Shown: positions 7,454 to 8,463 of the stretch, piece by piece
Layout of the letters: each line of letters starts with the position of its first letter
Numbering within the stretch: position 1 is the stretch's first letter
Assembly: GCF_054482595.1 (NCBI RefSeq)
Contig: NZ_CM137008.1
Reading direction: 5' to 3' (one strand)
DNA length: 64,000 nucleotides
Made by a program: the position numbers and the translations under genes
Notes under the pieces: model-generated
The model's input: the letters and a program-made list of their open reading frames with translations, nothing else
What the model was told of the DNA's origin: nothing
The model's database searches: none

Positions 7454-7859
7454 AAGAGAACATCCCCTGAGAGTTTAATTTTCGTCAAGATGCGTGGCGG
7501 ACAATCCCCTGCCAGCGAAACGTTATCTTCCTGCTCCAGGTTTGCGACAATTTGCTGCGTCGCAAAAAAGCAAACGTTTAGCTCCGCGCATACAAAACGG
7601 GTGGTAAAAAAAGCAAACGATTATCCGGCGATCATAGCGGCTTTTTCAACCGAAGTTTGCTGCTTTTTTCTCTTTTATTGTCTTGACGATGAAAAACCAG
7701 GCAATTGATGCGCAAACGTTATCGTCGGTGCGCAAGATTGCAGCGTTATCGAGCCGTATACCGTTCAGGATTGCGATAAAAAATCGTCTGAGATGACAAA
7801 AATATTGCGGTTAAAAAGTATACTTTTACACTGGCGAAGAAACGTCGGTGACATACAAT

Positions 7860-8003
7860 TAAAGCATCAACACCAACCGGAACCTCCACCACGTGCTCGA
7901 ATGAGGTGTGTTGACGTCGGGGGAAACCCTCCTGTGTACCAGCGGGATAGAGAGAAAGACAAAGACCGGAAAACAAACTAAAGCGCCCTTGTGGCGCTTT
8001 AGT
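7860..8003 (+). ncRNA. sraL: Candidate sRNA SraL/RyjA in the yjcD-soxR spacer (boundaries approximate)
   Basis: Position matches the known location of SraL antisense to the soxR 3' end; a hairpin at 7979-8000 followed by AGTTTTGTT gives a plus-strand terminator. 5' end not determinable from sequence. Confidence 0.35.
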
Positions 8004-8463
8004 TTTGTTCATCTTCCAGCAAGCGTGCGCCGGTACCTTCTTCTCCTAAGCGGTCGCCCGGGTTACGCAACGGGCAATCACTGCGCGAAAGGCAGCCACA
8101 ACCAATACATCCGTCCAGTTCGTCACGCAGCGCTACTAAGGTATGAATGCGCCGATCCAACTCTTCTCGCCATTGGGACGAAAGCTGTTTCCACTCTTTC
8201 GCACTTAACGTATGCCCTTCGGGCAACACGCCAAACGCTTCACCAATGGTCGCGAGAGGAATGCCAATACGCTGAGCAATTTTGATAATTGCAACATATC
8301 GCAACACATCACGTTTATATCGCCGCTGATTGCCGCTGTTACGGATACTGGTAATCAACCCTTTACTTTCATAGAAATGCAGCGCCGATACCGCCACACC
8401 GCTGCGTTTCGCCACTTCGCCGGGGGTTAGCAGCGCTTTAATGCGGGGTAATTTCTTTTCCAT
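7999..8463 (-). CDS. soxR: Redox-sensing MerR-family regulator SoxR
   Basis: 154-aa ORF with MerR helix-turn-helix and C-terminal [12 protein letters not shown] [2Fe-2S] cysteine cluster. Confidence 0.97.

Follow-up and report, generated by a model that had tools for sequence, protein, structure and literature searches.

SraL, also known as RyjA, has been described as an RpoS-dependent small RNA whose gene adjoins soxR on the opposite strand, and which accumulates under RpoS control in stationary phase and under osmotic stress (Silva et al., 2013; PMC3753932). In Salmonella, the dependence on RpoS was documented by the response of a promoter-lacZ fusion and by a more than 100-fold ChIP enrichment of RpoS, and a region near the 5' end of the RNA was found to pair (7 + 3 bp) just upstream of the Shine-Dalgarno sequence of tig, SraL lowering the trigger factor mRNA; this pairing was validated in Salmonella by gel shift as well as with compensatory mutants in vivo (PMC3753932). 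SraL further base-pairs with the leader of rho and guards it against premature termination by Rho (reviewed in PMC6582626). A Salmonella Hfq co-immunoprecipitation sequencing experiment gave 0 reads for sraL under the condition used. In E. coli, RyjA is listed as RpoS-regulated and has been detected as a full-length, polyadenylated RNA, which with a log2 fold change of 3.84 is among the most increased transcripts in a pcnB mutant (PMC5389530). The gene has also been described as overlapping soxR (PMC11481515).

Following this literature, a promoter dependent on sigma-S (RpoS) would drive SraL transcription from position 7866 at the locus analysed here when cells are in stationary phase or osmotically stressed; transcription would run towards the convergent soxR gene and end at a 13-bp hairpin, and the resulting RNA of about 141 nt would be degraded via poly(A) polymerase and PNPase. 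The window, i.e., the whole stretch of 64,000 nucleotides that was analysed, is E. coli DNA. An earlier note, made from the letters alone, had flagged the spacer between yjcD and soxR (7454-8010) as containing a probable SraL gene together with a bidirectional terminator overlapping the soxR stop. The features that bear on the identity of this gene are as follows:

7866..8006, plus strand: sraL / ryjA small RNA gene, 141 nt, from the Rfam match and the K-12 ncRNA ryjA
7854..7862, plus strand: sraL -10 hexamer TACAAT (7854-7859) followed by TAA (7860-7862), a sigma-S-type extended -10, from conservation
7831..7836, plus strand: weak -35-like element, CTGGCG here and CTGGCA in most genera, separated from the -10 by 17 bp, from conservation

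The covariance-model scan that the earlier note had proposed was run over the whole window with Rfam and returned a full-length match to sraL (RF01408) at 7866-8006 on the plus strand, with a score of 153.3 bits (gathering threshold 39), an E-value of 1.1e-34 and coverage of model positions 1-142 of 142. Likewise, alignment to K-12 placed the annotated ncRNA ryjA (b4459, 4277926..4278066) base for base on 7866-8006 with 100% identity, and this annotation also supplies the 5' boundary at 7866 that could not previously be read. Over the entire flagged span, the window differs from K-12 MG1655 by a single base at 7458 (G here, A in K-12), which falls outside the sRNA, and the region was found at a coverage of at least 80% in 5419 of 5426 complete E. 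coli genomes. Given this distribution and an E-value of 1e-34 for RF01408, both the hairpin and the sRNA are far beyond chance. We therefore regard 7866-8006 as almost certainly the gene for the trans-acting small RNA SraL (RyjA), and nothing in the evidence contradicts this identity. The proposal of an SraL gene in the spacer is thus borne out by the Rfam match, the identity to K-12 ryjA and a conserved promoter; the absence of both an Rfam match and a conserved promoter about 140 nt before the terminator had been named as the outcome that would speak against it, and both are present. The flagged span does contain the sRNA, but it is far wider than the gene, and 7454-7865 is other DNA.

The SraL/RyjA locus is hence an already known one, at which every family-defining feature that could be tested was found. 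In PGAP-annotated RefSeq E. coli genomes, soxR alone is annotated beneath the match, and the missing sraL label reflects how such genomes are annotated and does not indicate that the gene is absent. Since PGAP leaves the gene unlabelled, its recognition from sequence is useful, and the locus, a textbook sRNA, provides a good example of a correct call of this kind.

For the comparison across species, 45 homologous loci were fetched from one-genome-per-species contigs with a pattern of two conserved sRNA blocks, AACCGGAACCTCC and GGGGGAAACCC, and locus counts given below out of 46 comprise these 45 and the window. The loci cover Escherichia, Citrobacter, Salmonella, Enterobacter, Klebsiella, Raoultella, Leclercia, Lelliottia, Trabulsiella, Pseudocitrobacter and others. 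The invariance of AACCGGAACCUCC and GGGGGAAACCC is a product of the search pattern by construction, while that of the GAAAGACAAAGACCGG segment and of the terminator stem is not owed to it.

The promoter likewise lies outside the search pattern. Among 43 distinct upstream sequences from many genera, positions A-11, A-9, T-7 and A-5 of the -10 region are invariant and T-6 is nearly so, and the -10, the TAA and the CTGGCA -35 keep a fixed spacing. TACAAT and TAA occupy -12 to -4 relative to the +1 at 7866, which is canonical spacing, the -10 element ending 7 nt short of the annotated +1 and about 140 nt upstream of the terminator. In the -35 block (CTGGCR), G58, G59 and A62 are invariant in the alignment of the 43 sequences, and the element matches TTGACA at three of six positions in E. 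coli and at four of six in most other genera; a degenerate -35 is typical of sigma-S promoters, and the same -10/TAA features have been described as sigma-S-type (PMC3753932). The promoter does not carry the C at -13 that is typical of sigma-S. Judged by its conserved elements, the sraL promoter appears to be a sigma-S-type promoter acting at the annotated +1.

Projecting the Rfam consensus structure onto 40 distinct enterobacterial homologues, aligned with MAFFT, placed 95.9% of the cells in standard pairs, compared with 40-55% when the 3' partners were slid by 1-3 columns. Eight pairs were changed on both sides, a count matched by none of 500 shuffles; these changes fall into helices 1 and 6 and, by region, comprise four in the 5' helix, three in the central helix and one in the terminator helix. 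In the terminator helix, 9 of the 13 stem pairs never vary among these homologues, and the loop differs in length and sequence. The pattern argues that the consensus secondary structure of SraL is held by compensatory substitutions. With respect to the targets, the RNAduplex energies of SraL with the E. coli tig and rho leaders were no better than with shuffled targets, which is not surprising for duplexes as short as these. The best case, SraL nucleotides 82-106 with rho -152..-128, reached -17.6 against -13.8 +/- 2.5, and 8% of the shuffles were as good.

The DNA between the ghxP (yjcD; Xan_ur_permease) reading frame, which occupies 6104-7453 on the minus strand, and the sRNA contains the following elements:

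7514-7529: weak PurR box, PWM 8.0 bits
7568..7583, minus strand: strong PurR box AGCTAAACGTTTGCTT in the ghxP leader, PWM 18.8 bits, predicted
7611..7626, minus strand: weaker PurR-like box GGATAATCGTTTGCTT, PWM 11.2 bits, about 90% conserved, overlapping the candidate ghxP -10
7620..7649, minus strand: candidate sigma-70 ghxP promoter, -35 TTGAAA (7649..7644), 18-bp spacer, -10 GATAAT (7625..7620)
7710..7725, minus strand: PurR box ACGATAACGTTTGCGC, PWM 18.3 bits, published for 'ryjA/yjcD' as its ChIP-chip motif
7736..7775: junction of about 40 nt without detectable homology, at the site of a GST gene of about 0.7 kb in most genera
7776..7830, plus strand: region upstream of the sraL promoter, elsewhere the divergent GST promoter region

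Scored with a PWM built from 27 PurR ChIP sites of Cho et al. (2011), from which the site of this locus had been left out, the boxes at 7568-7583 and 7710-7725 are the two best of the whole 64 kb, and the next site outside the spacer reaches 12.5 bits. A PWM from ChIP sites was needed to bring out this signal, because a plain PurR consensus search of the window with 3 mismatches gave four matches against 3.6 expected and hence no enrichment. The motif at 7710-7725 is the one given for the bound region 'ryjA/yjcD' in Table 1 of Cho et al. (2011), a table in which the box at 7568-7583 does not appear; among 35 ghxP upstream regions, the latter is the best conserved and nearly invariant. The candidate ghxP promoter matches the consensus at 10 of 12 positions, and both hexamers are conserved across genera. 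With this promoter, the box at 7611-7626 would lie over the -10/+1 of ghxP and that at 7568-7583 in the leader. About 140 bp separate the sraL +1 from the nearest PurR box upstream of it, and the label of the ChIP region might suggest that PurR controls sraL. This is unlikely, as the boxes remain beside ghxP in those genera in which the GST gene comes in between and sraL lies about 1.1 kb away; for the same reason, we consider them ghxP operators and not regulators of sraL.

In Escherichia and a small number of other taxa, ghxP and sraL are 413-455 bp apart, as opposed to 1087-1329 bp elsewhere. The intervening gene, STM4267 in Salmonella, encodes a protein with GST_N and GST_C domains and is divergent from sraL; it is absent from Escherichia, Trabulsiella and some Citrobacter. 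In a blastn comparison, the alignment of the Enterobacter ghxP upstream region reaches window position 7735 with 76% identity and near-identical islands, and homology to other genera resumes at 7776. At the equivalent of 7776..7830, other genera carry a GGCGAAA-N-TTTCGCC palindrome that has decayed in Escherichia. From these alignments, 7736-7775 appears to be the scar left where Escherichia lacks the GST gene present in most of its relatives. The part of the flagged span at 7454-7865 is thus not sRNA but the PurR-controlled promoter and leader of ghxP plus the junction of the lost GST gene.

At its other end, the sRNA runs into soxR:

7975..8005, both strands: palindromic intrinsic terminator hairpin with a 13-bp stem and a 5-nt loop, ending SraL on the plus strand and a candidate soxR terminator on the minus strand
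7999..8463, minus strand: soxR coding sequence, 154 aa, MerR family, converging on sraL
7999..8001, minus strand: soxR stop TAA, which in plus-strand reading falls into the 3' arm of the hairpin

The stem is perfect over 13 bp, 7975-7987 being paired with 7993-8005 around the loop CTTGT (7988-7992), so that the hairpin recognized earlier at 7979-8000 is real but represents the core of a wider stem. Its predicted free energy is -18.4 kcal/mol on the plus and -19.0 on the minus strand, and the minus-strand fold has a z of -4.1 against shuffles. Because the stem is a palindrome, both strands transcribe AAACUAAAGCGCC, a loop and GGCGCUUUAGUUU. The U-rich sequence that had been noticed on both strands is seen as TTTT-G-TTC after the hairpin on the plus strand and, if the lower A:U stem is counted as part of the tract, as TTT-G-TTTTCC on the minus strand; both tracts are interrupted (UUUAGUUUUGUU and UUUAGUUUGUUUUCC).

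With a simple scan that requires five or more T among the 8 nt following the maximal stem, a terminator was called on the plus strand, marginally and solely through the stretch TTCATCTT, while the minus strand at 7975-8005 has 4 T in 8 and was not called. Such a rule misses that at this hairpin the lower, A:U part of the stem makes up the actual U tract. We therefore computed, for every division into stem and tail, a discriminant for terminators after d'Aubenton-Carafa et al. (1990) with ViennaRNA energies, the absolute values of which are approximate: the best division has a 10-bp stem on both strands, with the tails TTTTGTTC (plus) and TTTGTTTTCC (minus), and d-scores of +12.9 and +12.8, respectively. 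On the plus strand, an end at the hairpin is implied by the K-12 annotation of ryjA. In the possibly incomplete supplements of two Term-seq studies (PMC7815308, PMC12207403), no entry for the 3' ends of ryjA or soxR was found under name, b-number or coordinate prefix.

The K-12 soxR gene (4277469..4277933) maps such that 8 nt, 7999-8006, are shared with ryjA. The prediction of a transcript antisense to the soxR 3' end is in keeping with this, as the last 8 nt of sraL on the plus strand overlap the stop and the last two codons of soxR on the minus strand. Of soxR, the hairpin takes in the stop, the AAC codon for the final residue N154 (8002-8004) and a single base of the Q153 codon. An overlap with the soxR stop is thus correct, whereas a placement within the last codons is imprecise, the other 24 nt of the 31-nt hairpin being 3' of the stop.

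The convergent arrangement of soxR and sraL is kept at 45 of the 46 loci; at the remaining one there is no soxR nearby. The stop lies inside the hairpin at 11 loci, the window included, which belong to Escherichia species, Citrobacter amalonaticus and two other enterobacteria; in Escherichia and C. amalonaticus, SoxR terminates in ...LLEDEQN, with the TTA of GCGCTTTAGTT as its stop. At 22 loci, SoxR ends ...LLEED, ...EDD or ...EDE and the stop is found 1-12 nt past the stem, usually in the T tract of the sRNA, and at 12 loci it is 14-514 nt off, sometimes with REP-like insertions in between. The hairpin itself is constant whatever the position of the stop. The exact overlap of stop and hairpin is thus a trait of Escherichia and a few relatives, superimposed on a conserved convergent layout. 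Since the stop is inside the hairpin or at most 12 nt from it at 33 of the 46 loci, the hairpin is the first structure that the soxR transcript meets there.

Several readings of this arrangement have to be weighed. From our point of view, the hairpin at 7975-8005 probably terminates both SraL on the plus strand and soxR on the minus strand, as the palindromic stem reads AAACUAAAGCGCC...GGCGCUUUAGUUU in either direction. It could also be imagined, and we consider this somewhat unlikely, that the hairpin terminates SraL alone and that soxR transcripts end by read-through, Rho-dependent termination or 3' processing. The failure of the simple scan to call the minus strand, where the tail after the 13-bp stem is short of T, would fit such a reading, as would the poorer minus-strand tail in several genera (ATTCCCGG, 2 T in 8) and the inference that in E. 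coli the minus-strand hairpin could be impeded in its folding by a ribosome stopped at the TAA in its 5' arm. However, owing to the perfect palindrome both transcripts have an identical GC core with UUUAGUUU after it, the d-scores of the two strands are equal and the hairpin is even slightly more stable on the minus strand. As the plus-strand terminator scores no better and yet demonstrably defines a 141-nt RNA, the minus-strand terminator is equally credible as far as sequence goes. The earlier description as a bidirectional terminator overlapping the soxR stop therefore holds with regard to the overlap, and its bidirectional part is plausible from the equal d-scores, although the scan called the plus strand alone. 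One could further speculate that SraL also acts in cis on soxR and alters the 3' processing or stability of its mRNA, with GadY on gadX as an analogue: the 3' segments of about 30-45 nt would be perfectly complementary and would offer the complementary loops CUUGU and ACAAG. The 8-nt annotated overlap with its shared hairpin, the nearly invariant stem across genera alongside a varying loop and the convergent proximity at 33 of 46 loci would agree with this idea, which we nonetheless judge improbable. Stable hairpins lock both partners, our literature search found no published evidence for a cis role, and the invariance of the stem can be explained by the A-left/U-right pairs that a two-way terminator needs. 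Moreover, an effect through the stop codon cannot be general, since the stop lies in the hairpin at merely 11 of 46 loci and 14-514 nt away at 12. Very improbable, finally, is that the hairpin couples the sigma-S and SoxRS stress systems such that induction of SraL changes the formation or stability of the soxR 3' end and a ribosome at the stop modulates termination; if this were true, the arrival of the ribosome at the in-stem soxR stop of Escherichia would modulate termination and with it the read-through antisense to sraL.

Two readings would do away with the sRNA gene altogether or give its transcript another role. That the signal is merely the 3' UTR or terminator of soxR, or antisense noise, would be in line with soxR being the sole PGAP annotation here, but is already contradicted by the results and has next to no likelihood: the Rfam match takes in 110 nt upstream of the hairpin, the plus strand carries a conserved promoter, two 5' helices show compensatory changes, the locus is kept in more than 15 genera even where soxR ends more than 100 nt off, and the transcript has been detected in E. 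coli (PMC5389530). Just as negligible is the chance that the SraL transcript encodes a small protein. An ATG at 7900 does start a 26-aa frame (MRCVDVGGNPPVYQRDREKDKDRKTN) that ends with TAA at 7978-7980, within a 62-aa ORF at 7793..7981, but it has no Shine-Dalgarno sequence before it, the covariation in the region is of the RNA type, and most homologues have CTG, ACG or CCG in place of the ATG; with its start codon not conserved across homologues, this small ORF was rejected.

Since sraL and soxR physically overlap, a clean deletion of sraL is impossible without touching the SoxR C-terminus and the terminator. C-terminal truncations of SoxR may be constitutive; in the literature examined, support was confined to the C-terminal substitution G143D, which is constitutive in E. 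coli, and a 10-residue truncation of the Stenotrophomonas protein was neutral. The genome-reduced strain DGF-298 is a case in which a deletion there did affect SoxR: eight of its residues are lost, and the SoxS regulon is constitutively active (PMC11481515). The restriction of the stop-in-hairpin arrangement to a lineage, the equal prediction for the two strands and the second PurR box are small additions that we did not find stated in the literature examined.

Among the described systems, GadY is a sigma-S-dependent sRNA that overlaps the 3' end of gadX and reportedly acts through this overlap in cis on the gadX mRNA (Opdyke and colleagues, 2004). SraL resembles it in its dependence on sigma-S and in being encoded opposite the 3' end of a gene for a transcription factor, GadY being cited as an RpoS-controlled sRNA in PMC3753932, but the documented targets of SraL, tig and rho, are in trans only, and its overlap is essentially just the terminator. 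SdsR (RyeB), another broadly conserved RpoS-dependent sRNA of enterobacteria, has in common with SraL a conserved sigma-S promoter, in which a TAA-type element accompanies the -10, and is likewise induced in stationary phase, whereas sequence, targets and genomic context are unrelated. With the bidirectional intrinsic terminators of convergent genes, the hairpin at 7975-8005 has in common that a single perfect palindromic hairpin lies between or overlaps two units, that A-rich 5' and U-rich 3' flanks extend the stem and that the predicted strength is equal on both strands; it differs from them in its interrupted U tracts, in being called by the simple scan on one strand and in holding the stop codon of one partner inside the stem. 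Compared with Salmonella and most genera, the Escherichia sraL locus is without the GST gene (the STM4267 homologue) upstream of sraL, its SoxR ends EDEQN instead of EED or EDD, and its soxR stop is inside the terminator stem. Within E. coli itself, the sraL of the window and the described SraL/RyjA are alike in sequence, length, structure, promoter type, terminator and soxR-convergent position, with no difference between them.

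In the leader of ghxP (yjcD), the sequence AGCTAAACGTTTGCTT at 7568-7583 is a second strong predicted PurR operator beside the ChIP-listed site at 7710-7725. With a weight matrix built from 27 ChIP sites of Cho et al. (2011), from which the site of this locus had been left out, the box reached 18.8 bits, the top score in the 64 kb, and it is nearly invariant across genera in the alignment of the ghxP upstream region. It is absent from the PurR ChIP-chip table, which names 7710-7725 only (Cho et al., 2011). The same matrix detects two weaker boxes alongside it, at 7611-7626 and 7514-7529, one of which overlaps the candidate -10 element of ghxP. 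As a side note, the flagged span 7454-8010 differs from K-12 at a single base, window 7458 (G, versus A in K-12). This base falls in the gap separating the Shine-Dalgarno sequence of ghxP from its ATG, 5 nt ahead of the start codon.

Further upstream of ghxP, gene content varies between genera. Most Enterobacteriaceae carry a glutathione S-transferase (GST) gene of ~0.7 kb between ghxP and sraL (for example at 3092-3805 of the homologous locus L003), which is missing from Escherichia, Trabulsiella and some Citrobacter; at the corresponding junction in E. coli, ~40 nt of sequence (window 7736-7775) cannot be aligned. A palindrome GGCGAAA-N-TTTCGCC was seen some 55-70 bp before the +1 of sraL, as in the homologous loci L007 and L031. 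According to the alignment, it is kept in the genera retaining the GST gene, and its Escherichia counterpart at window 7793-7812 has decayed to ACAAAAATATTGCGG. The palindrome is probably an operator of the divergent GST gene rather than of sraL.

Elsewhere in the window, the following matches to Rfam families were obtained:

53836-54032, plus strand, lysine riboswitch aptamer (RF00168, 99.5 bits)
557-628, minus strand, naRNA4 (RF02564)
37949-38019, minus strand, naRNA4 (RF02564)
42178-42248, minus strand, naRNA4 (RF02564)
51849-51920, minus strand, naRNA4 (RF02564)
51634-51783, plus strand, STnc430 (RF02053, 75.8 bits)

The riboswitch is presumably the lysC leader, and the four naRNA4 matches look like REP/BIME-type repeats.

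In some genomes of Enterobacter and Lelliottia, REP/BIME-like palindromic insertions, e.g. GCCGGGTGGCG...CTTACCCGGCCTAC, keep sraL and soxR apart; in the homologous loci L012 and L013 they fall in the interval from the sraL terminator to the stop codon of soxR. At two further homologous loci (L020 and L040), enterobacterial soxR-sraL-ghxP sequence is filed under the name of an unrelated taxon: one record is a MAG titled 'Bacillota bacterium', with a contig identical to E. coli, and the other is titled 'Chryseobacterium sp. 18061'. Both are probably contamination or mislabelled assemblies.

Among the 45 homologous loci, the length of the SoxR tail differs by lineage (…EED, …EDD, …EDEQN, …DDESLKN, …DDNDSKN, …EDDAQNA), the longer tails arising where the frame continues into the sraL terminator or in its direction. 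Removal of ryjA from the genome-reduced strain DGF-298 cut SoxR by eight residues (window 7999-8024 encodes the SoxR C-terminus). This strain also shows a constitutively high SoxS iModulon, a link between the two being discounted by the authors (PMC11481515). The C-terminal substitution G143D renders E. coli SoxR constitutive. Truncations of the SoxR C-terminus were reportedly found by Nunoshiba and Demple in 1994 to be constitutive as well. It may therefore be worth reconsidering whether the loss of the eight residues causes the high SoxS iModulon in DGF-298.
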